From the IMG/VR virus record IMGVR_UViG_2537561857_000027: DNA of 12,985 nt; one strand, written 5' to 3'. The stretch comes from a virus (taxonomy: Duplodnaviria > Heunggongvirae > Uroviricota > Caudoviricetes). This document shows, in pieces, positions 1-12,985 of the stretch (position 1 is the first letter of the stretch; each line of letters opens with the position of its first letter). Under the pieces are notes generated by a model. It did not search any database and was not told the origin of the DNA. It saw only the letters and a program-made list of their open reading frames with translations. A program made the position numbers and the translations under genes.

Positions 1-393
1 TTATGCCGTCACTGAATCGCGCTCAACATACCGATCCATCTCCAGCCGAACATCCAGCATCATCAGCATTCCTTCAATAACACCTTCAGCTTTTTGCAGC
101 CGCTTTCCGATAGTCCCATCAGAGCATTCATGTTTTTGCGCCAGTGACATAAACGTCATCCCCCGCACGTAGTAATCAACCAGCAACTCATGCAGATCGC
201 GATTGTTCCGGTAAAGGCGGGCTATGCACCCGCATATCACCATCGCATCATCGTCACAGCACTGTGGGCGTGATGTTATCTTTGCCGGAATAATCCCCTT
301 AAATCCTGCGGCAACGGATGACCAGGTCACATTCTCGCGATTATTTGCCGCCCACGCTCCCCTGCGTTCCAGAACCTGCTGAATATCACGCAT
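1..393 (-). CDS. Phage antitermination protein Q-like (QuuD-like), about 130 aa
   Basis: ORF-track frame 1..399 with stop at 1-3. The track's first codon is TTG; the first ATG is at 393-391, preceded by GAGG 9 nt upstream. The product [18 protein letters not shown]...CCDDDAM...[18 protein letters not shown]...[15 protein letters not shown] matches, from memory, the DLP12 QuuD / Q antiterminator family. Identification is by recall, not search. Confidence 0.6.
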
Positions 394-461: not shown

Positions 462-600
462 CTACGAAAATTTCGTAGTTCTGACCCTCTTAAAGATGGT
501 TTGTTATCAGCCCTCAGAAGTGAGGGATGTAAAAATCAGGGCTGGCTGGCTGGCCCGGTCTGGATGGTTTACATACCCCGATATCGGGGATGTACAAATC
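462..600. other. Cluster of three GC-rich hairpins upstream of the Q-like gene: CTACGAAAATTTCGTAG (462-478), CCCTCAgaagTGAGGG (511-526), CCCCGATATCGGGG (576-589); the last two are each followed by ATGTA(A/C)AAATC
   Basis: Inverted repeats read directly from the sequence. The third is embedded in a longer imperfect palindrome ACATACCCCGATATCGGGGATGTA. None is followed by a T-run on the plus strand. Function unknown. Confidence 0.4.
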
Positions 601-1239: not shown

Positions 1240-1413
1240 TCACGGCACACCAGCCACAACACGCGCATAATTTTCAGTGGTCACGCTGTCCGGCTGCGTG
1301 GACTCCTGTTTGCGCTGGCGTTCTCTCTGCTCTTCAATCATGAGGATTAACTCGCGCTCCTCCTGTTCTTCAATAATCCCGTGAATTACCTCTGTTGGTG
1401 AACGGTCGGTCAT
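1240..1413 (-). CDS. Hypothetical small acidic protein, 57 aa (MTDRSPTEVIHGIIEEQEERELILMIEEQRERQRKQESTQPDSVTTENYARVVAGVP)
   Basis: Hand translation; below the 60-aa cut-off of the ORF track. ATG at 1413-1411 is preceded by a G-rich SD-like stretch (GGGGG, about 4 nt spacer); stop at 1240-1242. Its first 30 bp are duplicated at 4390-4419. Flanked on both sides by GGTTACTT(A/T)AAGT(T/A)ACT sites (1210-1227 and 1465-1483). Confidence 0.4.
   Translation of the reverse strand: MTDRSPTEVIHGIIEEQEERELILMIEEQRERQRKQESTQPDSVTTENYARVVAGVP
1382..1411. repeat. 30-bp perfect direct repeat, copy 1 (TGAATTACCTCTGTTGGTGAACGGTCGGTC); partner at 4390-4419
   Basis: Exact 30/30 identity read from the sequence; flanking bases differ on both sides. 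Copy 1 covers codons 2-10 of the 57-aa gene. Confidence 0.9.
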
Positions 1414-1550
1414 CGGTCCCCCTGTGAGTTGCGGTTATGCTCTGTAAAAACGTTCATTTTTGTAGGTTACTTTAAGTAACTTACAAAAAATCGATCATCA
1501 CGTATCGGTTTCGTTTTGCGCTTCCTGTTGCGTTTCGTTTTTGAGAAAAA

Positions 1551-1756
1551 TGCGCATTTTTTTGCGCACTTTTTGAGGTGGTCTATCCCCCTGCAAGCCG
1601 CGTCGTTACTGGCTTTGTGCTGGTGGTCAGCATAATCGATTTTGTGATCGGTTTTATGATCGAATTTGCGCAGTTTTCTGCGCACTTTTCGGGGAATTGT
1701 TGCCCTACGGAATGTGTGCATCAGGAGCGATATGTAACTGACTTTGTAACTGACTT
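1551..1756. promoter_or_regulatory. Operator-like repeat block: two pairs of the palindromic hexamer TGCGCA at 12-bp centre spacing (1551-1556/1563-1568 and 1667-1672/1679-1684), plus two directly adjacent 12-bp repeats TGTAACTGACTT (1733-1744, 1745-1756)
   Basis: Read directly from the sequence. The block sits in a 630-bp stretch (1414-2067) with no convincing ORF, between the restriction gene and the 57-aa gene. A regulatory function is inferred only. Confidence 0.35.
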
Positions 1757-2045
1757 ACTGTCAGCCGCAATCACTACGGGTAATTGCAGATTTCTTACGC
1801 GATTTTAAAATCAGGCCTTCCGTTGTGACATTTCTTTGATGTGCATGAGGTATATTGCTCGCAAGTTATCTTTCGCCCATGTCGTCAATAGTTTTACGGC
1901 CTTAATTAGATCGTTAAACGTATCGACATCGCTCAGTCCGATTTGCTTATTTGGGATTTGTGTTATTGATCAGATCTCATAATCTGGATTGAGTTCCCTC
2001 AAATACGAAGTGATCTACTATTCCGAACAGCTATTTAGTCATCAT

Positions 2046-2069
2046 AACCGGGTTTATCCCGGCTTTTTT
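2046..2069 (+). terminator. Candidate plus-strand intrinsic terminator (CCGGG-ttta-CCCGG, then c + TTTTTT)
   Basis: 5-bp GC stem followed by a T6 run on the plus strand only. Its T-run overlaps the stop codon of the convergent minus-strand restriction gene. It implies plus-strand transcription in 1414-2040. Confidence 0.4.
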
Positions 2070-3144
2070 AATGTTTGATGCATTTTTCCATGAAAGAATC
2101 TAAGAATTGATCGGTTATTCCTTGAGGCTTTCGGCGCTCACAAAGAGAATACAATTCTTCTACGGCAGAGTAAGGAAAAAATTTTGTGTCTAGCTCACGA
2201 AATTGTGGTCTATTTGCAAACTCAATTACTTTTTCTCTATATTCATCTGGAGCTACGATTGTCCATCGTATATCTTGCAGACGGGGAGCATAATCACAGA
2301 AGTTCTTCATACGTGCTAAACCCCTTATTATTCCGGTACTATGCTCGATCTCCATCACGGCAGGCATCAATTTACCATTTCTAAACCAGATGCAATCTAT
2401 CAATCTTGCGCCAGCAATGGCTTCGCTGTAGGAACTTAGGACTTTTTCATTAGACAGACTGTCAATGACACCATCCATTTGAGCGATTGCTTTACCATTG
2501 TATTTTAATCCTCGGTCATTAGCTGCAACCCATGTTCTGTATCCCAGATGATGACCGATTTTTACTAATGCTATCTGGATTTGTGCATGTCTTCTTGATT
2601 CTTCAATAGACATGCCTTCAATTGGACGGATTGTTTCTGAATCAACACTTTGGTATACAACTTCTGTGTTCATCTCTGATATTACAATATTAGTTTTGTA
2701 TTCAGAAAGCTTGCCGTTTTCATGTGGTAAATTCGGTAAGTATATAAGATGCTTGTGGCCTTTTTTAATCGTCTGTTTCGTATTAATAACCTCTAAGCGG
2801 TCGAGTTTACACCAATAAAATTGAGGTGTATGAGCAAGCAAACTTTCAATAACTGAACGAGAGTTATAGCTTGCACCGAATACTCTATCTAAATTGATAG
2901 GCGCATCCTCTTGAATTGCGTTAGCCAAACGCCATAGCATTTGGCTAGATATGCTATCAACTTTGGCATCTCTGAGCGTTTCACCTTTGGTTGGATTGAA
3001 ACGTTTAAAGCGTATTGGGCCTTCTGGTAACTTAATCGAGTCGATAACAATCTTCCCGGCATTACTTTCATTCACATAATCAAACTGCCTGTTTTTGGGT
3101 AGATTTGCTATCGCATTCACAAGATTCATTGCTGTTAAATTCAT
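2068..3144 (-). CDS. Putative Type II restriction endonuclease partner of the adjacent methyltransferase (358 aa); nuclease family not recognisable
   Basis: Long ORF directly downstream of, and overlapping by 65 nt, the C5-methyltransferase gene on the same strand. ATG at 3144 has GGGA 6 nt upstream. The C-terminal region has a possible PD-(D/E)xK-like arrangement (...ARLIDCIWF...PAVMEIEHS...), which is a weak call. The restriction function is inferred from operon context. Confidence 0.5.
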   Translation of the reverse strand: MNLTAMNLVNAIANLPKNRQFDYVNESNAGKIVIDSIKLPEGPIRFKRFNPTKGETLRDAKVDSISSQMLWRLANAIQEDAPINLDRVFGASYNSRSVIESLLAHTPQFYWCKLDRLEVINTKQTIKKGHKHLIYLPNLPHENGKLSEYKTNIVISEMNTEVVYQSVDSETIRPIEGMSIEESRRHAQIQIALVKIGHHLGYRTWVAANDRGLKYNGKAIAQMDGVIDSLSNEKVLSSYSEAIAGARLIDCIWFRNGKLMPAVMEIEHSTGIIRGLARMKNFCDYAPRLQDIRWTIVAPDEYREKVIEFANRPQFRELDTKFFPYSAVEELYSLCERRKPQGITDQFLDSFMEKCIKH

Positions 3145-4219
3145 CTTTTATCCCTAAATGCTCTAATATGGATTTTGCTATGCCTAAAGCCGCAAGGTAA
3201 GGAACACCATTGCCAACAGTTTTAAACATATTTGAAAGAGTCATGTAAGATGGCAATTCGAATTCTTTCGGTAAAGACTGAATGGCAAGTGCTTCTGCAA
3301 CTGTTATTCTACGTGGCTTATATGGATGCAAATGTACTTCATTATTACCGTAAGCAGCTGTTGGAGAATATCTCCAGCGATGAAGACGCTTGTAAGATTT
3401 TTTGCTATCGTCCCCTTCAGCTACAGCTTTAAAGCGAACTAACCCAGCCCTAGCAGTAAACACATGTTTTGCGTTCACATGTTCAGAAACTTTGTTTTTC
3501 CTAAACCAGTAGTCAACAGTTAACTCTTCAGGAAGTGACTCAGGCATTGCCAGTGTTGAGTTCTCAACAAATTCATTCGTAGTTGGCCAATTATGTTCAA
3601 AAGCACTACTATCTGGGTATAATCTTCCACTCCAGTTAAAGATCTTGGTTAGACTTTTATTTTGGAAACCCAACAGAATAATGCGTTCACGGTCTTGCGG
3701 GACTCCGTATTCAATCGAATTTATTAACCTTTCATGAAGGATGTAACCAACGTCCATTAACTGTTTTTTGAGATGCTCAAAAAACTCACGGTGTTTGAGC
3801 GTGCGATAAAGACCTTTGACGTTCTCGAACAAAAAGAAGTCAGGCTTCATCTCAACAATTATATTGATGTAACTTTGAGACAGCTTACCGTTCTCTCCAT
3901 CGCGACCTTTGTTCTTACCTGCAACGGAGAAATCAGGGCACGGTGGGCCACCGATGAAGCCAATTAGTCTTTTTTCTTTCTTGAGAGCTTTAATATTATC
4001 TTTCAACTTATTGTGATCAACTTCCTCGATGCTCTCTTCTGCATATCCAAAACGTGGGATAGGTTTGTTCATCACCGCTCGTGAGTGCTTGTAAGCATCC
4101 ATAAATGGTGGGTGAAATTCATTCACAAAAACCACCTCGTAGCCTGAGTTTTCGAAGCCAAGATCTAGAAAACCTGAGCCGGAAAAGAAAGAGAAGATGG
4201 CGGGTTTAAGTGTGGACAT
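3080..4219 (-). CDS. DNA (cytosine-5)-methyltransferase, Type II R-M modification subunit (379 aa)
   Basis: Canonical m5C-MTase motifs in the correct order: I FSGSGF (FxGxG), IV GGPPCPDFS (catalytic Pro-Cys), VI ENVKGL, VIII QDRERIILLGF, IX RRITVAEALAIQSLP, X GNGVPY. A variable region of about 130 aa lies between VIII and IX. Start ATG at 4219. Confidence 0.9.
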   Translation of the reverse strand: MSTLKPAIFSFFSGSGFLDLGFENSGYEVVFVNEFHPPFMDAYKHSRAVMNKPIPRFGYAEESIEEVDHNKLKDNIKALKKEKRLIGFIGGPPCPDFSVAGKNKGRDGENGKLSQSYINIIVEMKPDFFLFENVKGLYRTLKHREFFEHLKKQLMDVGYILHERLINSIEYGVPQDRERIILLGFQNKSLTKIFNWSGRLYPDSSAFEHNWPTTNEFVENSTLAMPESLPEELTVDYWFRKNKVSEHVNAKHVFTARAGLVRFKAVAEGDDSKKSYKRLHRWRYSPTAAYGNNEVHLHPYKPRRITVAEALAIQSLPKEFELPSYMTLSNMFKTVGNGVPYLAALGIAKSILEHLGIKDEFNSNESCECDSKSTQKQAV

Positions 4220-4248
4220 TTTTTACCTATCGGTGATCGTTGAGTCAT

Positions 4249-4285
4249 GCAAAAACGCCCCTGCATCTTACCAGATGAAAGGGGC
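4249..4285 (-). terminator. Minus-strand intrinsic terminator between ssb and the R-M operon (GCCCCT...AGGGGC stem with inner CATC/GATG pairing, then T-run)
   Basis: Plus-strand 4257-4262 GCCCCT pairs with 4280-4285 AGGGGC; the plus-strand A5 at 4251-4255 is the U-tract after the hairpin on the minus transcript. Confidence 0.5.
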
Positions 4286-4292
4286 ATTGCAA
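4265..4292 (-). promoter_or_regulatory. Candidate sigma70 promoter for the R-M operon: -35 TTGCAA (4292-4287), 16-nt spacer, -10 TAAGAT (4270-4265)
   Basis: Hexamers read on the minus strand. The -10 lies in the loop of the upstream terminator hairpin, so cassette transcripts would start inside or after the hairpin while read-through from ssb is terminated. Confidence 0.4.
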
Positions 4293-4367
4293 CGGGATTG
4301 CAGGCTCTTGTAAAGGTCGTCCGTTGTCATTTTTATGGATATAGTCTTTAATCAACGTGTTCACCTC

Positions 4368-4430
4368 CTATGATGTGTTTAAGGTTGCTTGAATTACCTC
4401 TGTTGGTGAACGGTCGGTCTGCTGGTTCAT
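4368..4430 (-). pseudogene. Truncated duplicate (20 codons, MNQQTDRSPTEVIQATLNTS) of the 5' end of the 57-aa gene at 1240-1413
   Basis: Shares the 30-bp repeat and the peptide TDRSPTEVI with the full-length gene, then diverges to a stop at 4368-4370. Its ATG lies 13 nt after the ssb stop. Confidence 0.5.
4390..4419. repeat. 30-bp perfect direct repeat, copy 2; partner at 1382-1411
   Basis: Exact identity to 1382-1411. Confidence 0.9.
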
Positions 4431-4443
4431 GTTGTGCTGTCAT

Positions 4444-4893
4444 TCAGAACGGAATATCGTCAGAGAACGGGTCATCACCTCCCGCTGGTGGCTGATTTCC
4501 CTGCTGTCCGGTCTGTCGTTTTGCTCTTTCCAGTGCTTCAGTCGCCTTCCCCTGTTGCCCCCGCTTCCCGCCAGGGCGCACCGAACGGGCACTGATTACG
4601 CTGTCAGCGATAACCTGCCAGCCCTGCCGTGTTTCCCCGTTCTGTCCGGTCCACTGGCTGATCTGCATGTTACCCGCCACGCTGATAAGGTCGCCTTTTT
4701 CATGTCTCGCCAGCGCGTCGGCCTGCTTACCAAATGCCAGGACTGATAGCCATAACGTCGCCTGTCCGTCCTGTGCCTGACTGCATGGCAGTGATACCGC
4801 CATACGCGCCAGCGTCATCGGTGTGCCCTTGCTGGTCTGTTTTACCTGCGGGTCGTCCACCAGCCGCCCGTAAGCTGCAATCTGTGCTGTCAT
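4444..4893 (-). CDS. ssb: Single-stranded DNA-binding protein (SSB), 149 aa
   Basis: Gly/Gln/Pro-rich linker and the hallmark acidic C-terminal tail ...GGDDPFSDDIPF (E. coli SSB ends DDDIPF). AAGGAG lies 8 nt upstream of the ATG. Start overlaps the stop of the upstream gene (ATGA). Confidence 0.85.
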   Translation of the reverse strand: MTAQIAAYGRLVDDPQVKQTSKGTPMTLARMAVSLPCSQAQDGQATLWLSVLAFGKQADALARHEKGDLISVAGNMQISQWTGQNGETRQGWQVIADSVISARSVRPGGKRGQQGKATEALERAKRQTGQQGNQPPAGGDDPFSDDIPF

Positions 4894-5306
4894 GGTCTGC
4901 GCTCCTTGTTCCGGTACTCCTGGATAATCCCCATTGTCATATCGAATAAATCACATGCCGCTTTTTCTGCATCTTCCGCTTTCAGGTCATACAGCGTCAT
5001 GAAATGGTGAGCGATTGCCCGTGCGGATCTTTTGCTGTTTGCTGAATATTTCTCATAGATTTTTTCTGCCCGCTCTTCAATATCCCGCCGGAACTCTTCA
5101 CGTTCAAACAGGTCACGGTGTATCAACATCAGCGAATCATTCAGCCATGTCACATCGGCGTATACCGTTCGCTTCCAGACAATCAGGATCGGGATATGTT
5201 TTTCATCGCAGTGATGCAGATGTTCGTCAGGTATATAAAGCGTGGCTCTGCCTCGTACCGATACGAACCTCACAACAGATTCCGTTTCACTTGTTTTTTT
5301 GATCAT
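4890..5306 (-). CDS. Hypothetical protein, 138 aa, translationally coupled to ssb
   Basis: The track ORF 4890..5435 runs back into the origin iterons, giving an RRLRQLRQLRRLRR artefact. The internal ATG at 5306 has a strong SD (AAGGAG, 7-nt spacer), so the start is placed there. Confidence 0.6.
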   Translation of the reverse strand: MIKKTSETESVVRFVSVRGRATLYIPDEHLHHCDEKHIPILIVWKRTVYADVTWLNDSLMLIHRDLFEREEFRRDIEERAEKIYEKYSANSKRSARAIAHHFMTLYDLKAEDAEKAACDLFDMTMGIIQEYRNKERRP

Positions 5307-5367
5307 GAATCGTCTCCTTCCAGGCATCACATCATTCACACGCTTTATATATATAGGAAAAACGTGT

Positions 5368-5683
5368 CGCCTCAGTCGCCTCAGTTGCCTCAGTTGCCTC
5401 AAACGTCTTAACGTATTGATTTGATTAATAATCACAAAAAAATTGAGGCGACATCATGTCGATTTGAGGCAACAATAGGGGGTATTTGAGGCAACATCAC
5501 GTTGGTTCCGTTCAGACAAACAAAACCTGTCAGCCGTGTTGCCTCAAAATGGGCAGTTGTTGCCTCAAAATGGGTAATTGTTGCCTCAAAATGAGCAATT
5601 GTTGCCTCAGTAAAAACAGAAATAAAACATATAAATCAATCACATATATATATTTATTACTGTTTGAGGCAACTGAGGCAACA
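5368..5683. repeat. Iteron-type replication origin: at least 13 copies of the 9-mer GTTGCCTCA / TGAGGCAAC in both orientations, plus an AT-rich stretch (5611-5662)
   Basis: Four tandem 9-mers at 5368-5403; three inverted copies at 5444-5496; four copies at exact 21-bp spacing (5539, 5560, 5581, 5602); two inverted copies at 5666-5683. The array lies immediately downstream of the replication protein gene. Confidence 0.8.
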
Positions 5684-5707
5684 TTTTTTCATCTTATATA
5701 CGCGTAG

Positions 5708-7846
5708 TTAATCGCTTCCCTCCTCATCGTGATTAGCGAACAACATCCCGTAGGCCCATAATTGCGCTCCATTAAGGTTCTTAAGGCGTGGGGTCTTGAT
5801 TTTCCATCCTCTCCCGCTCTCTGGTCGTTTCAGCATTCCAGCTTCGTGGAGTATTTTTGCAACGGTATCCTTGTTGAAGCCTTCCGCTACTTTCGATTTA
5901 AACGGCTCCGATAATACGTAAAACAACAATGGTTCATCGTAACGGCTTCCCGAATCCCTGTAGCCGTACAGCTCAGAAATCGGCAGGCTGGCTGGGTCAT
6001 AATCAACGGGCGCAAAACGGCTCATGCCGTAGGCAGCAAGAAACGCCTCTGCCTGCTCAATGATCTGTTTGTGTTCCTTGTTGCCCGTGCCAAATTCTTT
6101 TACCCAGGCATTAAATACATACTGAATTGCATCGCGGCATTCCTGCACGGACCAGCCAGTTACATGACCGGAAAGCACAAGCGCGGCCTCCAGTATGGAG
6201 AAACGTTCACCCACGCGGTGGACCTGCTCACCGTAATTGTCTGGAATGATATTTCGCCAGCGTGCACGGCTCTCTCTAACCGCGTCCTTAGCTTCCTGCT
6301 GGTTCTCCGCAAGCCATTTAATCCACTCACGCCCCGCTGCGCCGTGGTTTTCTTGCCATGCCGCCTTCAATGCGTCAGCGTGATCCTTTCCGTTGCTGTA
6401 TTCGTGTAACTGCGTGGCTTTTTGAATCGGGATATTGAGCAGGCGCACAAGTTGCCCGACCTTAACTTTTATCCCCGACGTTTTGAGGTATGTTTCGATA
6501 TCCACCTCTCCGGTGCTGATAGCAACGGTCCGCCAGTTTTTCAGCTCTCTGTTGCCGCCGTCCTTTGCCCCCTGTAATTTTCCGAATCCATTGAACAAAG
6601 TGTATGAGGATACGTACACGTCACGGGGGCTTCCTGCCTGCCCTATCTCGTCCAGTGGAAGGAGTCCGTGATTGTGTGCTTCTGCTTCGTTAGCTATCCC
6701 CAGCGCCGTTCCGTACCAGGTTAATCGCAGCGCCTCAGGATCGCCCCACAAGCTCGACGCGATGCTCTGCGTTGTGGTCTTGCCTGCTGTGGATTGCTCG
6801 AAAAAATGCACGCCAAAACCATCAGCGCCTGTCAGCCCGACTAATGGCGCGGATAATGACGTCGCTATACCCAGCATCATGAACGGATTGCCACCAGCCA
6901 GCCGCGCCACGCTGTCGCGCCAGCTTTCCGCCGTTCCTGCCACGGAATAACCGTTAATCGCGGCACTTTTTCCGGTAAACAAAACGGGCTTGTCAGATTC
7001 GCCGATAACCGTACCGTCCGGCATGATGTACGCGCCAAAATGCCAGCCAGCCTTCGGGCTTAAGTGCCATTCCTCATGCTGTCCGCCTAACTGCATCCAG
7101 TCAGCCAGGGGGATCCTGTGTTTTCCGTTTGTCGTGACTTTAAGCCCGTTGGCTTTCAGTAATCGCCAGCCGTCAGTGTCGCCTATTCCGCAGCAAGGCA
7201 CAGCCATAGTGACAAGCCGATTTGTTGTCGAATCTGTCCAGCGCATCACGCGGTAATGCTCGTTACCAATGACACCTGAACCGAGTAATTCAACGGAAGA
7301 ACACAGCCATTCGAACGGACGGATAATTTCGCCAGATTGCTTATCAACCTTTGGCGTCACCCAGTAAACGCCATCAGGACGGCATTCAACGCGGGGTTTT
7401 AATTCGTCATCATAATTTCCGGTGAAATTTGTCTTTGCCGGAAGATTGATCACCAGGCAGTTGCCGCGTTCCGCATCATCCTTCAGTCCAGCCATGCGCG
7501 GTGTCCAGTCCTCCGGCTGCTGGTCAACAAAGCCGCTGTAGCAGCGTGCCTCCTTTACACCCGCCACCGCAAGCAGTGTTGCTATCTGTAAAAGTGCTGT
7601 CTCTGATATTTCACCAGCACGATAAACGCGCACGTAATTGCGCCCTTTATCGATGATTTTCGTGTCTTCCAGGCTCGCCAGTTGTTTCGGTCCAAGAATA
7701 ACGGGCGGTGTATCATCTGCTGCAATATGCTTTCCGGCCCATTCGCTCCACTCTTTCGCATGTGCCCAGGCATCACTACCCGCAAAGATAATGACTTCGG
7801 TCATTTTGTCTTTCGGCTGTTTTTTTAAATTCGGTGCGCTTTTCAT
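5708..7846 (-). CDS. Satellite replication initiator, primase/helicase-like (pri-rep), 712 aa
   Basis: Large ORF adjacent to the iteron array. N-terminal region (MTEVIIFAGSDAWAHAKEW...) resembles Toprim/primase-type domains; the central region has a P-loop-like GKT segment (EQSTAGKTTTQS). The domain call is from pattern memory only. Start ATG overlaps the stop of the upstream gene (ATGA). Confidence 0.75.
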   Translation of the reverse strand: MKSAPNLKKQPKDKMTEVIIFAGSDAWAHAKEWSEWAGKHIAADDTPPVILGPKQLASLEDTKIIDKGRNYVRVYRAGEISETALLQIATLLAVAGVKEARCYSGFVDQQPEDWTPRMAGLKDDAERGNCLVINLPAKTNFTGNYDDELKPRVECRPDGVYWVTPKVDKQSGEIIRPFEWLCSSVELLGSGVIGNEHYRVMRWTDSTTNRLVTMAVPCCGIGDTDGWRLLKANGLKVTTNGKHRIPLADWMQLGGQHEEWHLSPKAGWHFGAYIMPDGTVIGESDKPVLFTGKSAAINGYSVAGTAESWRDSVARLAGGNPFMMLGIATSLSAPLVGLTGADGFGVHFFEQSTAGKTTTQSIASSLWGDPEALRLTWYGTALGIANEAEAHNHGLLPLDEIGQAGSPRDVYVSSYTLFNGFGKLQGAKDGGNRELKNWRTVAISTGEVDIETYLKTSGIKVKVGQLVRLLNIPIQKATQLHEYSNGKDHADALKAAWQENHGAAGREWIKWLAENQQEAKDAVRESRARWRNIIPDNYGEQVHRVGERFSILEAALVLSGHVTGWSVQECRDAIQYVFNAWVKEFGTGNKEHKQIIEQAEAFLAAYGMSRFAPVDYDPASLPISELYGYRDSGSRYDEPLLFYVLSEPFKSKVAEGFNKDTVAKILHEAGMLKRPESGRGWKIKTPRLKNLNGAQLWAYGMLFANHDEEGSD

Positions 7847-8142
7847 TTCTTGCCCCTGAATGCGTTAATCATGTTTTTCATCTTTCGGATGTTCGCCTCT
7901 GCTTTTGCGTTGCTGGCTGGCTTACCGCGCGGCACGGACTGCACCAGAGAAAAATCACGCGCGAACTGATACAGTGGCATTACGCAGTCATAGTCATAGC
8001 CTTCACGGCGGTAGGCGATACGGCGTTCTCTCACGCTGATAATTGTCACGATGCCGCCGTACTTATCGCGGTAAATATCCCCGCGCATAAATTCAGGTTG
8101 AGCTTTGCCACTGGCAGTTAAGCCAGAATTTTTTGATGTCAT
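7843..8142 (-). CDS. Hypothetical protein, 99 aa, translationally coupled to pri-rep
   Basis: ATG at 8142 with GGAGA 8 nt upstream; stop overlaps the pri-rep start. Confidence 0.6.
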   Translation of the reverse strand: MTSKNSGLTASGKAQPEFMRGDIYRDKYGGIVTIISVRERRIAYRREGYDYDCVMPLYQFARDFSLVQSVPRGKPASNAKAEANIRKMKNMINAFRGKK

Positions 8143-8198
8143 TGAGTTAATCTCCTGAAGGAGTTGTCTTAATCTTTATTTCCCGTTTATTTTTGCCG

Positions 8199-8390
8199 TT
8201 ATTGTTCGCCGCGTTTTTCTTCCTCCGTCATTAACCACACCGCCACATTGCTGGAAAGCTGTTTGATAAGTCCCGCAATAACAGAAAGGTCATGGTCGTC
8301 TATTTCTTCGTGGTTGCGTTCAATCATGCGGCTGATTACTTCGACCTGTTGCGCTTTCAGTGAGGCTTCTGCCAGTGTCATTTCCTGCAT
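8199..8390 (-). CDS. Hypothetical protein, 63 aa
   Basis: ATG overlaps the stop of the upstream 61-aa ORF (TAATG); G-rich SD-like stretch upstream. Confidence 0.5.
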   Translation of the reverse strand: MQEMTLAEASLKAQQVEVISRMIERNHEEIDDHDLSVIAGLIKQLSSNVAVWLMTEEEKRGEQ

Positions 8391-8575
8391 TACTGCACCC
8401 CCTTAATTTCATGAACGGCGTGGATAATTACGCCGGATAAACCGGCTTTAGCTGATTTGTTAATTACTGTGCTGATTGCAGCCTGGACGTTTTCGGCCTT
8501 CACGTTCTGCGTGATGCCAACGGTATAGCCGCGTGCATTAACGGCACGGGAAAAAACACGGAAGGTTTTAAGCAT
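8390..8575 (-). CDS. Hypothetical protein, 61 aa
   Basis: Strong SD: GGAGG with 6-nt spacer before the ATG at 8575. Confidence 0.55.
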   Translation of the reverse strand: MLKTFRVFSRAVNARGYTVGITQNVKAENVQAAISTVINKSAKAGLSGVIIHAVHEIKGVQ

Positions 8576-8738
8576 GAGTCACCTCCTGACGGATACGGGC
8601 GACAAAAATCAGATGTGCGTGCGGCAGCTGCGCGCGTGCTTCGCGCTCAGTGGCAGCGGTAACGGTGAATATTGCAATGCTACCTGTCAGGCACTGCATA
8701 AAGCGCCAGACAAAGTAAGGGCGTGCGGATACAGCCAT
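8568..8738 (-). CDS. Hypothetical small protein, 56 aa, with a hydrophobic core (LTGSIAIFTVTAAT); proposed real 3' part of the 504-aa track ORF
   Basis: Internal ATG at 8738 is preceded by GAGGAG with an 8-nt spacer, and codon usage improves from here to the stop. Its end overlaps the start of the next gene by 8 nt. Start assignment is by inference. Confidence 0.35.
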   Translation of the reverse strand: MAVSARPYFVWRFMQCLTGSIAIFTVTAATEREARAQLPHAHLIFVARIRQEVTHA

Positions 8739-8903
8739 GTGAAAGGCTCCTCTGACTTTGGGATTATACCCACCGCCGGAGGTGGTAAGCTCGCTGGCGG
8801 TGGACTGTACAGGGTTACCACAACTGGCGTTAGAGGAAACCAGCCCGACCGAAGTCGGCCCCATACAGCCCACCATTGTTGAGGTGTGCGTGTGCGCCGA
8901 TAC

Positions 8904-8924
8904 AAAAAAAGACGCTGGCGCGTC
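8904..8924 (-). terminator. Minus-strand intrinsic terminator (GACGC-tggc-GCGTC followed by T7 on the minus transcript)
   Basis: Plus-strand A7 at 8904-8910 precedes the hairpin at 8911-8924; an outer CGATACA/TGTATCG stem (8897-8903 with 8926-8932) encloses it. Confidence 0.5.
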
Positions 8925-9207
8925 GTGTATCGCCTCTAACTCCAGCGGGGTGGTAATCCCGATCCCCGTTTTATAAGGGATAGCCTCAGTATATGCCGCT
9001 TTTTTGCTTAAGTGGTCGGATGTGTTGCGAGAGAAGTTTGTGCGAAAAATACCTGCGTTTTCTTTGAAAGCACATAATAACATCACGTTATTTATGTTTA
9101 TGCAGTGTGTCGCAAAGCGACCTGAATCATCACGCAAATTACAACCATAAAAAATACCTGCGCTGTGATATGAGGTACTACAGCGCACCGCTTTACGGGT
9201 ACAGACA

Positions 9208-9387
9208 ATGACAAATGAAGAACTACAGGAAATCGCATTATCCATACTTGAGCGACAGCGCGAAAAAGTACGCCTGGAACGCGAGTCTTTGCTTAATCCC
9301 TCTCCTCTCACCAGACCAAAACGATTTGCGCTTGAGGCATTTCTGGACAAATACCCACGGCGATTAATCTCGCCTAAAAACCGATAG
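9208..9387 (+). CDS. Small basic/helical protein A, 59 aa (MTNEELQEIALSILERQREKVRLERESLLNPSPLTRPKRFALEAFLDKYPRRLISPKNR)
   Basis: Hand translation; below the track cut-off. Shares a C-terminal motif K(R/K)FALE(A/E)FL(D/R)KYPRRL...KNR with ORF B, and a similar 45-nt upstream region. Composition is protein-like. The coding strand is not proven (see findings). Confidence 0.4.
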   Translation: MTNEELQEIALSILERQREKVRLERESLLNPSPLTRPKRFALEAFLDKYPRRLISPKNR

Positions 9388-9483
9388 CGATCCGCTTTTG
9401 CTTCTCTGACTCCATAAAACGAATAACAACCATCAGCGCCGTGGTGTGAGGTGCTGCGTCGCTCCGCTGTACAGGAAATAAGT

Positions 9484-9762
9484 ATGGATTTACCACCAGA
9501 AGATGAGAAATTTTTACGACAACTACAACACCAACTACTCATGGATGCCATTGTCGAGCAGCAAACAGGGAGCAGCCCCATTGATTCATCGCTGAATAAA
9601 AAGGCCGCTTCCCGTTTTATTGAAAACAGGATAAGACGAGGAAAAACATGTGACGACGAGTCAAAGGCATCGCATACAAGAGATAAAAAATTTGCACTTG
9701 AAGAGTTTCTCAGGAAATACCCACGGCGGCTAAAAGCAACCAAAAATCGCCCGCCAGGCTGA
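9484..9762 (+). CDS. Small protein B, 92 aa, paralogue of protein A
   Basis: The track ORF 9451..9762 begins at GTG; the ATG at 9484 has AGGAA 6 nt upstream. C-terminal motif shared with protein A. Confidence 0.45.
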   Translation: MDLPPEDEKFLRQLQHQLLMDAIVEQQTGSSPIDSSLNKKAASRFIENRIRRGKTCDDESKASHTRDKKFALEEFLRKYPRRLKATKNRPPG

Positions 9763-9765
9763 TAG

Positions 9766-10076
9766 CATTGTCCACCAGCCTCAGATATGGCATTGTGGAT
9801 AATGCGCTTGATTTCCTTTATCTCCACTGGCGACCCTTTCGTGGTCGCCTTTGTTTTGCCTGCCATTCCTGCATCATGCGGATATTCGCGCCGTACAGGG
9901 CCACCAGCGCGATAATTTGATAAAGCCTCCTTCTGATAATGCTTAACGTGTTTCATGCGCTCAGCGGCGAAATGGCTCACGATATGGCGCATGTAATCAG
10001 CATGGTTGATGCTCACCTGTGCGAACTTATCCGCAGTATCGATGTACAGGGCGGCAGCGTTGCGGATGTCAGGCAT
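9766..10076 (-). CDS. Hypothetical protein (MPDIRNAAALYIDTADKFAQVSINHADYMRHIVSHFAAERMKHVKHYQKEAL...); start well supported, 3' end unresolved
   Basis: ATG at 10076 with GGAG about 9 nt upstream; it overlaps the stop of the upstream 51-aa gene by 8 nt (ATGCCTGA). The first 50 or so codons use E. coli-preferred codons (ATC, CTG, CGC, AAC, TTC). The frame has no stop until 8568. The lower coordinate given here is arbitrary. Confidence 0.3.
9829..9858 (+). terminator. Plus-strand intrinsic terminator (GGCGACC-ctttcgt-GGTCGCC followed by TTTGTTTTG)
   Basis: Perfect 7-bp GC-rich stem followed by a T-rich tract, about 70 bp downstream of ORF B. Confidence 0.6.
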
Positions 10077-10224
10077 GTTCACGTTCTCCCAGGCGACGGA
10101 CCAGCCAGCGTTGGGCTAATTCGGTGAGACGTTCTTTACGTTCTGGCGTTGGCATATCCATATCCAGTAGCGCACAGTTACGGCTTTCCAGATACGCGAG
10201 CAACGCCAGTTGATCAGCGGTCAT
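10069..10224 (-). CDS. Hypothetical small protein, 51 aa (MTADQLALLAYLESRNCALLDMDMPTPERKERLTELAQRWLVRRLGEREHA)
   Basis: Internal ATG at 10224 overlaps the stop of the Rha-family gene (ATGA); the track's longer 81-aa version would overlap that gene. Confidence 0.45.
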   Translation of the reverse strand: MTADQLALLAYLESRNCALLDMDMPTPERKERLTELAQRWLVRRLGEREHA

Positions 10225-10859
10225 ATGGTCACGAACTTTTTTTGATGGGATGCCGTTTTTTTGGCCCATACAGGCGGGTGCATCCCTAATACAAGGCGCG
10301 CAATGAAAGTACATTCGTTGTTATAAGCATGACCGTGTTGAGTATCTCCAGTGCGCTCAATGTATCCCTTCATGGCATCCCCCATAGAGCGCATCTCAGC
10401 TTTGGCCTCACATCTCTCTGCTATCCAGTTAGCCATGCGGTTAAACTGCGCAATGTATGCCTCTTTGAATGCAGCCGCTTTTTTTCCGGTAAATCCCATT
10501 GTTAAAAACACGAAGCCGTCTTTGGTGACTTCGTAGGCTTTCAATACGCGCCCCTTATGCTCAAATTTTACCCGCCGAAAATTGCGGGTTAAAAATTCAG
10601 CAGAACAACACAGGTTTTCAATCCGGTTAACAACCTTATCGTGATCCTTTCTGAAAAATCGGGCGATAGCCTGTGAAGTGGTTACAGGCTCACCGCCAGA
10701 AGGAAACACTTCCGGCGCGGTGAGTGCATTTTTATTTATTCCGTCAGCAATAATCTCATTGCCGGAAATTACCGGAATAATTGCGGCGAAATACTGTTGG
10801 CTCAGTTCTTCGGGCTGAACGAAGCCCTGCCCCTGTACGAGCATATTCGGACGTTTCAT
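10221..10859 (-). CDS. Phage regulatory protein, Rha family (212 aa)
   Basis: Residues about 57-140 (TTSQAIARFFRKDHDKVVNRIENL...RVLKAYEVTKDGFVFLTMGFTGKKAAAFKEAYIAQFNRM) match the Rha-domain signature as I remember it. AGGAG lies 7 nt upstream of the ATG at 10859. Confidence 0.75.
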   Translation of the reverse strand: MKRPNMLVQGQGFVQPEELSQQYFAAIIPVISGNEIIADGINKNALTAPEVFPSGGEPVTTSQAIARFFRKDHDKVVNRIENLCCSAEFLTRNFRRVKFEHKGRVLKAYEVTKDGFVFLTMGFTGKKAAAFKEAYIAQFNRMANWIAERCEAKAEMRSMGDAMKGYIERTGDTQHGHAYNNECTFIARLVLGMHPPVWAKKTASHQKKFVTI

Positions 10860-10924
10860 TGAAAAACTCCTGCTATCGGATCAGGTTTAGTGCTGGGGGA
10901 GAATACCCCCCACCCAAAAGATTA

Positions 10925-11128
10925 TTACGCGGCGTTGTTGCGAGAAGCATCAATACGCTGGTTAATCCATTCGTCGACTTCACTTTCAATAAAAGCCACG
11001 GAGCGGGGACCAATTTTTACCGGTTTAGGGAAACGCCCCAGGCTGATCAGGCGATAAATCCATGCGCGACCATAACCAGTACGGCGCATAACTTCAGAAA
11101 GACGGATGAATGAATTGTTATTAGCCAT
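10925..11128 (-). CDS. alpA: AlpA-family transcriptional regulator / excisionase-like protein (67 aa)
   Basis: MANNNSFIRLSEVMRRTGYGRAWIYRLISLGRFPKPVKIGPRSVAFIESEVDEWI matches the AlpA/Vis-type helix-turn-helix signature. AAGGAG upstream. Position just downstream of the integrase is typical for P4/PICI satellites. Confidence 0.85.
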   Translation of the reverse strand: MANNNSFIRLSEVMRRTGYGRAWIYRLISLGRFPKPVKIGPRSVAFIESEVDEWINQRIDASRNNAA

Positions 11129-11206
11129 TTATCAATCTCCTTAATGTTGACGCGGAAATCCCCTCCTGTGGCTTAGTAAGAGTTTTATTTGCGTCAAATT
11201 ACGAAC

Positions 11207-11239
11207 ACGACAAAAACCACAACATGAAAACATGTTGTG
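11207..11239 (-). terminator. Minus-strand intrinsic terminator (CCACAACATG-aaaa-CATGTTGTGG, then TTTTTGTCG on the minus transcript)
   Basis: Perfect 10-bp inverted repeat at 11216-11239 with the A-run on its plus-strand 5' side; about 530 nt downstream of the int stop and about 90 bp upstream of the alpA start. Confidence 0.6.
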
Positions 11240-11770
11240 GTATTGCATAAGATAAATTCAGATTGTTTGGTTGGTATGCTCCAGCAAGGTAGAGCTATTC
11301 CCGCTTTCGGCGGGGTCACACGATTAGGCGTGACGTCCAGTAGTTTTAAAGAGCGTTTTTTCAGTACATGGTGGGCGGACAAGAAAGCAATTGCGCTTTG
11401 TCAGCGCCGTAGATTCATATTTGAATCGTTGTATGTTTCCCGATAGCAAATCTATCGGTCACTGCGGGACGAACCATCCCGCCGCATCAATGTTAAAGAT
11501 CAACAGCACTTTGCCAGCGCTCCACCGCCTCATGGATGAATCATTACATGCTTTGTAATAGTGCATATATCACCATTCTTTCCTGCATCAGGAAAGCACT
11601 AAAGGCTGTTAAAGAGCATCCAGCTTTTCAGCTGCGTAGAAGACTCAATCTTCGTTGTTACAAAGAGCGCCCATACATGACGGATAACTGCGTGAAAAAC
11701 CCTCTGTAAGGATGTTAGCTGTAGCTTTCCGTGTACGTTAGTATACATCTGTATACTTGTCCAGTCGTTT

Positions 11771-12985
11771 TTATGCACATACACCAAACTTGCCGTGCAC
11801 CACGTTACCGCCCTGTTCCAGTGAGTCCATATAGTCGGCGTACCACTGGAGCATCTCCCGCCGTCCGTCCAGATATTGCGCGTGATTGTATGTGCCACGG
11901 ATCGAGTTTTTATCGACGTGCGCCAGCTGCGTTTCTATCCATGCGGAGTTATACCCCTGCTCGTGCAAAATCGTACTCATGGTGTGCCGGAACCCATGAC
12001 CAGTAACACGCCCTGCATAACCAATACGACGAATAAGCACGTTCATCGCCATTTCACTCATCGGTTTACTGTGCTGTATTCGACCAGGGAAAATAAACGG
12101 ATACTGCCCCGTCATGTGTTTCAGTTGTTCCAGAATAGCAATCGCCTGTTCTGAAAGCGGCACGCAATGAGGACGGCGCATTTTCATTCGTTCTTTCGGC
12201 ACTTCCCACAGACGATTATCAAAATCAATCTCCTGCCACTCTGCCTGCCGTAATTCACCAGGGCGGAGTCCTGTAAGAATCAACAATCGCATACCCAGCT
12301 TGACGATCTGGCTTCCGGTGTACGTATTAAAAACGCGGAAAAACTCCGGTAGCTCATCAACTTTCAGATACGCGTAATGCTCTTTCTTGTGTGGTGCAAA
12401 TGCGCTTGCCAGATCAGGAGCGGGGTTATATTCAGCGCGTCCGGTAATTATTGCGTACCGGAACACTTCGCCACATCGCTGGCGAACCTTACGCAATTTT
12501 TCAGTTGCGCCACGGTCATTAAGACGGGATAGAACCGCGAGCAATTCCATCGGCTTAATCTCTGCGATGGGCCTACCTCCAATGTACGGAAAAACGTCTT
12601 TTTCAAACGTCTCTATCATTTCCTCTGCATATGAGGGAGACCATCGGTCCAGGCGTTTTTCATACCACTCACGGGCGATCGCCTCAAAGGTGTTACCGCA
12701 TTTGTTCGCCTGTTCTCGCTTTTGGGCCTTTCTGACCTCACTCGGATTAACTCCACCAGCGATAAGCCTTTTGGCCTCATCCCTTGCCGTCCTGGCATCA
12801 GAAAGGGACACCTCAGGATAAACACCCAGCGACAACATTTTGGGCTTGCCTGCAAACCTGTATCGCAATCGCCAGCCCTTCGAACCGTTCGGCTCAATGA
12901 GTAACGAAAGCCCGTTGCCGTCATTGAGTGTATAGGCTTTCTCTTTTGGCTTCGCGCGGCGGATAGCAAGGTCTGAAAGCAACAT
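11771..12985 (-). CDS. int: P4-type tyrosine integrase (404 aa), complete
   Basis: N-terminus MLLSDLAIRRAKPKEKAYTLNDGNGLSLLIEPNGSKGWRLRYRFAGKPKMLSLGVYPEVSLSDAR is the conserved P4-integrase N-terminal domain; C-terminus has the catalytic region (HGFRHT ... RGTYNHAQY). ATG is at 12985-12983, the window edge, so the attachment site lies beyond the window. Confidence 0.95.
   Translation of the reverse strand: MLLSDLAIRRAKPKEKAYTLNDGNGLSLLIEPNGSKGWRLRYRFAGKPKMLSLGVYPEVSLSDARTARDEAKRLIAGGVNPSEVRKAQKREQANKCGNTFEAIAREWYEKRLDRWSPSYAEEMIETFEKDVFPYIGGRPIAEIKPMELLAVLSRLNDRGATEKLRKVRQRCGEVFRYAIITGRAEYNPAPDLASAFAPHKKEHYAYLKVDELPEFFRVFNTYTGSQIVKLGMRLLILTGLRPGELRQAEWQEIDFDNRLWEVPKERMKMRRPHCVPLSEQAIAILEQLKHMTGQYPFIFPGRIQHSKPMSEMAMNVLIRRIGYAGRVTGHGFRHTMSTILHEQGYNSAWIETQLAHVDKNSIRGTYNHAQYLDGRREMLQWYADYMDSLEQGGNVVHGKFGVCA

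Follow-up and report, generated by a model that had tools for sequence, protein, structure and literature searches.

Gene organization, boundaries and RNA module of a probable PICI-type satellite island at a tRNA-Gly gene of Escherichia coli

The stretch of DNA described here, referred to as the window, comprises the whole 12,985 nucleotides of the IMG/VR virus record IMGVR_UViG_2537561857_000027 (Duplodnaviria; Heunggongvirae; Uroviricota; Caudoviricetes) and appears to carry the greater part of a satellite of the phage-inducible chromosomal island (PICI) type. Its open reading frames (ORFs) were compared with the families of Pfam, PHROGs and NCBIfam, defence genes were sought with PADLOC, RNAs with Rfam, and relatives of solved structure in the PDB. 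In the interval 4444-12985, an integrase, an AlpA-family regulator, a Rha-domain gene, a replication initiator and an iteron origin all lie on the minus strand, where the initial annotation had placed them. Capsid, tail and lysis genes are absent, as had also been claimed; no ORF of the window matched capsid, tail, terminase or lysis families in Pfam, PHROGs or NCBIfam. The one-strand layout holds for all of these parts, and it does not extend to two small reverse ORFs, the only gene calls of the ORF list located on the plus strand. Similarly, the Rha-type regulator is recognizable by its domain, whereas an intact gene is not present because a frameshift splits it. In the gene labelled “pri”, no primase or Toprim domain was detected by Pfam, NCBIfam and PDB scans, and its product is a DUF927 initiator resembling the Rep of Staphylococcus aureus pathogenicity islands (SaPIs) and the Cch of staphylococcal cassette chromosomes (SCC). 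The features of this interval, read from the integrase end, are as follows.

11771-12985, minus strand: tyrosine integrase of the P4/CP4-57 type (Pfam Arm-DNA-bind_3, Phage_int_M and Phage_integrase, E 1e-25 to 3e-34)
11216-11241, minus strand: candidate intrinsic terminator between int and alpA (11-bp stem and T-run, consensus scan)
10925-11128, minus strand: AlpA-family regulator/excisionase (Pfam Phage_AlpA, E 2e-20)
10069-10859, minus strand: Rha/Ant (“Bro-zone”) gene, which a frameshift divides between ORFs 10221-10859 and 10069-10314 (Phage_pRha, E 2e-22)
9208-9387 and 9451-9762, plus strand: two paralogous small ORFs (ORF list), the only place with positive AT skew
8905-8981, minus strand: isrK/P4-seqA-like leader (Rfam isrK, 48.3 bits, slightly below the gathering score of 50)
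8793-8880, minus strand: C4/P4-CI-type antisense immunity RNA (Rfam C4, 77.7 bits, E 3e-14, full-length)
8568-8738, minus strand: Icd-like small protein of 56 aa, first gene of the replication operon (NCBIfam phage_ICD_like, E 2e-14)
8390-8575, minus strand: orf61 (ORF coordinates)
8199-8390, minus strand: orf63 (ORF coordinates)
7843-8142, minus strand: DUF4222 gene (Pfam DUF4222, E 5e-24)
5708-7846, minus strand: replication initiator/helicase (Rep) of 712 aa with DUF927 and a P-loop (Pfam DUF927, E 4e-42)
5366-5682, no strand assigned: iteron origin of two units with 13 copies of GT[TC]GCCTCA
Origin unit B: 5537-5609 (four iterons, 21-nt spacing), 5610-5664 (84% AT) and 5665-5682 (two inverted iterons)
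Origin unit A: 5366-5401 (four iterons, 9-nt spacing), 5402-5443 (79% AT) and 5444-5495 (three inverted iterons)
4890-5306, minus strand: conserved hypothetical gene after the origin (138 aa from the start chosen by the Prokaryotic Genome Annotation Pipeline (PGAP), 181 aa from an upstream GTG)
4444-4893, minus strand: single-stranded DNA-binding protein (SSB) of the PICI replication zone (Pfam SSB, E 5e-16)

The boundaries of the element were read from a locus of E. coli S1-KEN-03-A (L001), to which the full window is 99.8% identical. On the integrase side, L001 carries a tRNA-Gly gene, located 166 nt past the window end, and actS, and on the far side it carries a GH15 gene and the ETT2 type III secretion cluster; a tRNA scan of the window itself found none, the tRNA lying just outside. 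Structural or lysis genes immediately beyond the window, which the initial annotation regarded as the mark of a full prophage, were not found near the island in the L001 flanks, and these flanks are chromosomal only. Two 25-nt attachment (att) repeats corresponding to the tRNA 3' end, with 23 of 25 positions matching, are located at L001 14237-14261 and 28141-28165, of which the distal copy of the tRNA 3' end lies 740 nt past the left end of the window, and the att-to-att distance gives an element of approximately 13.9 kb. The empty site, reconstructed in silico by joining the two outer flanks, is contiguous and 100% identical in many E. coli genomes, and it is present, at a coverage of at least 80%, in 3,397 of 5,426 complete genomes. 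Based on the att repeats, the intact empty site and the chromosomal flanks, the island is a precise site-specific insertion and does not form part of a larger prophage. The list of E. coli PICI sites given in Table S1 (PMC6092414) does not include this tRNA-Gly site.

For comparison, EcCICFT073 and EcCIRM13514, both taken from Table S1 (PMC6092414), EcCIMP1 from E. coli MP1 and the P4 genome were used as reference elements. The prototype of the Gram-negative PICIs is EcCICFT073, which lambda and phi80 mobilise; its coordinates are given in Table S1 (PMC6092414), and its helper-dependent alpA induction, excision and transfer have been demonstrated. In the case of EcCIMP1, induction of alpA, excision and transduction were shown experimentally to depend on the helper phage Kapi1, and Table S1 (PMC6092414) lists EcCIRM13514 among the PICIs. 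Gram-negative PICIs are organized into Integration, Bro, Replication and Late zones, and an inward int followed by AlpA separates them from prophages (Mageeney 2023). In the island, the integrase at the end points inward and is transcribed away from the tRNA-Gly end (12985 to 11771), alpA comes next (11128 to 10925), and transcription is unidirectional in the order Integration-Bro-Replication-Late. In line with the features of Gram-negative PICIs (Fillol-Salom 2018), the element is also discrete, falls in the range of roughly 8-15 kb, has a specific att site, lacks structural and lysis genes, and possesses an origin of the expected form and position as well as genes homologous to those of experimentally validated PICIs. 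Supported by the boundaries, the empty site, the gene order and the homology to proven satellites, the window probably represents about 93% of a Gram-negative PICI-type satellite of approximately 13.9 kb, inserted in the 3' end of the actS-adjacent tRNA-Gly gene of E. coli. Of the combined label “P4-like / PICI-type” given in the initial annotation, which had also proposed comparison with both families, the PICI-type half is borne out by the gene order, the homology to proven PICIs and the form of the origin, whereas the P4-like half fails because the P4 hijack genes and alpha are absent and just Int and AlpA find matches in P4.

The closest agreement in gene order is with EcCICFT073, which shares the succession int, alpA, reverse YlcI/YnfO ORF, Icd-like gene, small ORFs, DUF4222, Rep, origin, hypothetical gene and SSB, together with unidirectional transcription, a comparable size (11.4 versus 13.9 kb) and two iteron sets around an AT-rich spacer. 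Amino acid identities to its proteins are 42% for AlpA, 41% for Icd, 70% for DUF4222, 78-79% for SSB and 42% between the N-terminal ~165 aa of Rep and the EcCICFT073 Pri-Rep. In contrast, EcCICFT073 has a primase-family Rep, a late zone with capsid-like and decoration-like genes, RppA and two cos sites, no Q gene and no C4 match at the Rfam gathering score; its integrase is 26% identical, and its att site is ycfD-phoQ. EcCIMP1 shares Int (66%), AlpA (70%), a Rep of the DUF927 type (58%), Ant/Rha, isrK and C4 upstream of Icd, and a tRNA att site. It differs in its length of 20 kb, in the TOPRIM domain of its TOPRIM/DUF927 Rep, in genes annotated as phage DNA ejection protein, lytic transglycosylase and DUF2824, and in having neither an SSB match nor Q.

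Among related islands, two others occupy the same tRNA-Gly site (L002 and L003), and two are located at yicC-dinD, namely that of SCU-106 (L004) and that of O157:H7 F6667 (L008). In these four islands, the gene order is kept and the integrase, Rha/Ant, Rep type and cargo are swapped. The islands of EcCIRM13514, F6667 and SCU-106 resemble the present one in Icd, orf61, orf63 and SSB (90-98%; in EcCIRM13514, 94%, 93%, 95% and 97%, respectively) and likewise lack a morphogenesis module, and those of SCU-106 and O157:H7 also end in the island-type Q described below. On the other hand, their integrase is only 30% identical, they use a different att site, they lack an O-iteron block, and their cargo consists of ProQ/FinO, PerC-family regulators, IS66 or YeeE; EcCIRM13514 is without Q. 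These islands show that modules are being exchanged in a living population; in SCU-106, for instance, the Rep is 100% identical although the integrase is only 30% identical.

With P4, the island has in common an integrase (38.5% identity), an AlpA-type regulator (45% to Vis), integration at a tRNA and the seqA/CI RNA module between alpA and the replication operon, and the circular order alpA, seqA, CI, small proteins, replicase, iterons, attP and int is collinear. P4 also has a second iteron region (crr) approximately 4.5 kb from ori, comparable to a second copy of origin unit A located 5.8 kb from the main origin of the island. Unlike P4, the island encodes no homologue of alpha, epsilon, sid, delta, psu, cII, beta or gop, and its Rep is of the DUF927 type; tblastn of the window proteins against the P4 genome showed no similarity to the alpha primase-helicase or to epsilon (Ash), and neither this search nor the Pfam and PHROG scans found the psu-delta-sid operon. 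The integrase with the AlpA-type regulator is a P4-like component, and the CI RNA/seqA immunity module upstream of the replication operon is characteristic of P4 and lies outside the seven components used by SatelliteFinder. By that seven-component definition, the island is not P4-like.

In the integration zone, the candidate hairpin at 11216-11241 would leave alpA with a promoter region of its own. AlpA is presumed to be the master activator by analogy, a role borrowed from the experiments with EcCICFT073 and EcCIMP1. Downstream, the match to PHROG_2657 is divided in succession across ORFs 10221-10859 and 10069-10314 of the Rha gene. The frameshift adjoins two A7 runs (CCAAAAAAACGG and TCAAAAAAAGTT) at window positions 10240-10262, and it may reflect a genuine mutation, a site of slippage or an error shared between the sequences. 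Between the Rha gene and icd lies a long gene-poor stretch. The two plus-strand small ORFs have no match in Pfam, PHROGs or NCBIfam. Their counterparts in L003 and L004 show 94-100% identity, and YlcI/YnfO is the annotation given to the ORFs that occupy the corresponding place in L002, EcCICFT073 and EcCIRM13514.

The immunity module is composed of the isrK-like leader and the C4 RNA directly upstream of icd, a pair that is also found by Rfam in EcCIMP1, L003 (two copies of C4), L004 and L008. The same Rfam models match P4, in which the C4 model scores 74.9 bits at CI and the isrK model 60.8 bits at seqA, and C4/isrK matches have previously been noted as markers of CI/seqA relatives in Gram-negative PICIs. 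The target pairing of C4 was assessed by explicit loop-to-target motif matches, as RNAduplex of the whole C4 against its flanks unfolds C4 and is uninformative. The C4 loop UCCUCUAAC and the junction GUGGUAA are complementary on the upstream side to UUACCAC at 8956 and GUUAGAGG at 8940, which constitute the upstream target boxes b1 and a1, respectively, carried by the isrK-like leader, and this leader terminates in a hairpin and U-run at 8911-8924. On the downstream side, they are complementary to UUACCAC at 8788 and AGAGGA at 8753, the latter being the Shine-Dalgarno sequence of icd, whose ATG is located at 8738. In P1, C4 silences icd-ant, and in P4, CI silences the alpha operon. A stop-free ORF of 504 aa (8568-10082), named “host cell division inhibitor Icd-like protein” by PGAP in L001, was rejected as a gene; its resemblance to Icd is limited to the last 56 aa, and it overlies both RNAs and the two opposite-strand ORFs. 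In relatives, this region is labelled as an “ash family protein” pseudogene, and the label falls on the C4 RNA.

The replication operon begins with icd, which is 94-96% identical in L002, L008 and EcCIRM13514. The genes icd, orf61 and orf63 overlap stop to start, a gap of 56 nt separates orf63 from DUF4222, and DUF4222 overlaps rep; PHROG_3672, PHROG_1478 and PHROG_285 were matched in the orf61/orf63/DUF4222 set. Rep matches the PDB entries 8tch (“Pathogenicity island protein”, E 1e-13) and 5dgk (“Active helicase”) and the NCBIfam model for the replicative helicase of cassette chromosomes, and the origin lies immediately 3' of rep as in Gram-positive PICIs. SaPI and SCCmec elements are otherwise unlike the island in that they are Gram-positive and regulated by an Stl repressor and have no other gene in common with it. 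All 13 iterons lie inside 5366-5682, compared with approximately 0.19 expected in the whole window and a maximum of two in 500 simulations, and they lie directly past the rep stop (5708). The origin of the island fits the description given for E. coli PICIs, in which two sets of iterons flank an AT-rich region directly 3' of rep. Matches of Rfam miRNA families at 5580-5701 were dismissed as artefacts of the AT-rich iteron region. The hypothetical gene that follows, for which no family or PDB relative was found in Pfam, PHROG, NCBIfam or PDB scans, is found in the same place in L002, L004 and L008, with 82-100% identity, and SSB is 96-97% identical in the relatives.

The second, direct copy of origin unit A lies outside the window and downstream of Q, at L001 14553-14729, and is 90-95% identical to window positions 5327-5511. 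Unit A is also found downstream of Q in L003, although the Rep and origin of L003 are of another type, and L004, with the identical Rep, is without the second copy. It is equally possible that this copy is an element like the P4 crr or a recombination scar.

The part of the window left of position 4444 contains the cargo and the terminal gene.

1382-4419, minus strand: type II restriction-modification cassette, accessory cargo, with a C5 methyltransferase (3080-4219) and an endonuclease (2068-3144)
1-393, minus strand: antiterminator Q, terminal gene of the island, outside 4444-12985 (Pfam Phage_antitermQ, E 2e-49)

The defence cassette reported in the initial annotation is indeed carried, as a type II restriction-modification system (PADLOC MTase_II, 3e-164; REase_II, 7e-124) in a variable accessory zone in which relatives hold other cargo, in agreement with the literature on PICI accessory genes. 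The system is absent from all relatives examined, in which the same slot is occupied by ProQ/FinO, PerC-family regulators, the MazF toxin or IS66. The cassette has a GC content of 0.38-0.40, compared with 0.44-0.58 in the core, and is bracketed by perfect 30-nt direct repeats (1382-1411 and 4390-4419), which suggests that it was inserted or exchanged at this point. The repeat is the 5' end of a small ORF (1240-1413), duplicated just past the SSB stop.

Q is 81-83% identical at the amino acid level to the Q proteins of 933W, VT2-Sakai and other Shiga toxin (Stx) phages, its DNA similarity to phages ends at the limits of the ORF, and it is related to the Q21 structures 6jnx and 6p18 (E 2e-7). 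The island-type Q, with 130 aa and a shared, short and distinct C-terminus, is also the terminal gene in L002, L003, L004 and L008, with dN/dS of 0.11-0.23. Q together with island-specific downstream sequence occurs in 116 of the 5,426 complete E. coli genomes, many of which are Shiga toxin-producing E. coli (STEC). Searches of the island for the 933W/VT2-Sakai pR'/qut gave only chance matches of 9-15 nt, and those for the 933W cI operators gave only chance matches with three mismatches. Past the Q stop by 130-210 nt, at L001 14792-14869 on the minus strand, four 18-nt repeats are spaced by 20 nt like the annotated iterons 1-4 of the 933W ori and match 933W at 63 of 76 nt (blastn E 3e-12 in 2.3 Gb of phage DNA). 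This sequence occurs in 429 other genomes, where, among the matches listed, it always falls within a prophage gene that bears the annotation “replication protein”; the O-protein iterons are orphan, outside any O gene, only in the three genomes that carry this island, and the host has no other copy. In the relative L003, the sequence downstream of Q gave no phage matches, indicating that the O-iteron block is not family-wide.

From these features, a possible course of events can be proposed for the PICI-type satellite, which would comprise four zones: an integration zone (int and alpA); a Bro/immunity zone (frameshifted Rha, reverse ORFs, seqA/IsrK-like leader, C4/CI and icd); a replication zone (orf61, orf63, DUF4222, Rep, origin, hypothetical gene and SSB); and a terminal zone with restriction-modification and Q and without capsid or packaging genes. 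In quiescence, the C4/CI-like RNA may pair with the ribosome-binding site of icd and thereby keep the operon icd-orf61-orf63-DUF4222-rep off, as judged from the complementarity and from P1 c4 and P4 CI. On induction, a helper phage would switch on the alpA promoter, and AlpA could activate the island operon, override the C4 silencing and, together with Int, promote excision, by homology to EcCICFT073 and EcCIMP1. Then, the SaPI-Rep/Cch-like initiator may fire the iteron origin that is found 3' of its own gene, probably assisted by SSB. The restriction system that the island carries could defend the host, and hence the island, against other phages.

DNA packaging is the main gap in the satellite model. 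Because neither terS, Rpp or a capsid-remodelling gene (Pfam or PHROG scans) nor a lambda-type cosN (GGGCGGCGACCT, at no more than one mismatch in the 43-kb locus) was found, the island would spread via an unrecognised packaging site or via a helper that needs none; a match to cosN with two mismatches in the island was judged to be due to chance. Capsid, portal, protease, head-tail connector and terminase genes, the criteria for a capsid-forming PICI (cf-PICI), were also absent from the window and the L001 flanks. The lack of cosN is one of several results that weigh against a PICI-type satellite. The late-zone proteins of EcCICFT073 after PerC, a query set that includes the capsid-like gene, the decoration gene and two ORFs of RppA-like size, gave in tblastn against the whole island only a 24-aa patch in the last small ORF. 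Only three of the five PICI core components of SatelliteFinder are present, without a capsid-morphogenesis gene or terS, which corresponds to “Type C”, a class that the SatelliteFinder authors set aside as uncertain, possibly defective or no satellites; the int-alpA-rep-ori layout is thus less than the “defining” one that the initial annotation had seen in it. Furthermore, the Rha gene is labelled “frameshifted” by PGAP in L001, the exact island is carried by only 3 of the 5,426 complete genomes, no helper was identified for the island, and the host genome contains no second Q933-like gene or lambda/933W-type origin elsewhere and no obvious resident helper.

Much of this evidence, namely the absence of terS, Rpp, a capsid-like gene and cosN, the broken Rha gene, the “Type C” composition and the rarity, would also fit a satellite-derived island that is no longer packageable, that is, a vertically inherited defence carrier whose hijack/packaging module was lost or never gained. 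This is considered unlikely: the island has kept int, alpA, C4, icd, rep, the origin, SSB and Q in intact form, purifying selection acts on Q across islands, and modules that are 97-100% identical at the amino acid level in islands at a different att site indicate recent exchange. In addition, minimal satellites that lack capsid-remodelling genes are on record, for example the phage-inducible chromosomal minimalist islands (PICMI), and EcCIRM13514 is catalogued as a PICI with a similarly bare terminal zone. The DUF927/Cch-type Rep, which also occurs in staphylococcal cassette chromosomes, and the lack of packaging genes could instead indicate a non-phage, SCC-like integrative and replicative element, moving without a helper as a defence island with its own replicon. 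Such an element is improbable here, as much of the non-cargo content is associated with phages or satellites (Rha/Ant, C4 RNA, Icd, AlpA and the Q933-type Q), 933W-type O iterons adjoin the island end, the gene order matches that of proven PICIs, and no relaxase, oriT or SCC-type recombinase was found in any Pfam, PHROG or NCBIfam scan. A decayed lambdoid prophage remnant that kept Q and origin fragments would account for the identity of Q to Stx-phage Q and for the four lambda/933W-type O iterons downstream of it in L001, and yet it is the least credible of the explanations: the phage similarity is confined to the Q ORF and the 76-nt iteron block and does not reach ninH, pR'/qut or the O coding sequence, the order of Q and iterons is unlike that of a lambdoid genome, the P4-type integrase faces inward and precedes AlpA, an arrangement that sets PICIs apart from prophages, and the 13.9-kb element has exact att boundaries and an architecture that recurs in many genomes.

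For the PICI-type satellite, the terminal features raise the speculative and rather doubtful scenario that this sub-lineage replaced the hijack of capsids and packaging with an earlier control of an Stx-type lambdoid helper, through a trans-acting Q combined with an origin decoy or recruitment. The conserved, shortened Q, for which no 933W-type pR'/qut target exists on the island, is proposed to act in trans on the helper late promoter, by which the virion genes, and in STEC stx, would be switched on or mistimed. Once the island amplifies, the orphan O iterons, which in this particular island adjoin the spare copy of the origin unit, could act as an origin decoy or recruit the O/P machinery of the helper. 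Experimentally, plasmid-borne or ectopic lambda origin sequences block lambda replication, and the decoy or recruitment role of the O iterons is put forward as a testable idea and not as a finding. The Q933-type terminal gene and the orphan iterons, both outside 4444-12985, might be the only features surprising to a specialist, and no literature linking PICIs with Q antiterminators or Stx turned up. As a PICI-type satellite, the island would add to the E. coli PICIs one with a tRNA-Gly att site missing from the original catalogue, and a further satellite with defence cargo, and the collinearity of a prototype-PICI immunity-replication core with alpA-seqA-CI-replicase of P4 would provide a mechanistic link between the two satellite families. 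Islands ending in a Q of the Q933 family are carried by at least 116 of the 5,426 genomes. In 933W-type phages, Stx2 expression is under the control of Q933, and toxin output and phage release could therefore be modulated by a second Q that acts in trans in the cell. Orphan helper-type iterons on a satellite would represent a natural “origin decoy”, a strategy so far demonstrated only with engineered plasmids.

Several repeats were also observed in the terminal DNA. A perfect 15-bp palindrome, TACGAAAATTTCGTA, is located at window positions 463-477, occurs in two to five copies around Q in L002-L004 and L008, and is shared by EcCIMP1 and EcCIRM13514. This palindrome may represent a site that is conserved in the PICI lineage for protein binding or in connection with packaging. 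Upstream of Q, an imperfect 63-nt direct repeat (76% identity) is found at 785-847 and 910-972, each copy of which holds a palindrome (TCCCCCAATGGGGGA and TCCTCAAATTGAGGA), and further hairpins lie between 460 and 600. These repeats and hairpins may be terminators or binding sites that gate Q expression. In the cargo zone, the region of an 84-aa ORF at 1467-1760 contains dense, short 12-nt repeats and TGCGCA palindromes (for example, AAAGTGCGCAGAAAACTGCGCA) and partially matches relatives, and it may be regulatory DNA rather than a gene.

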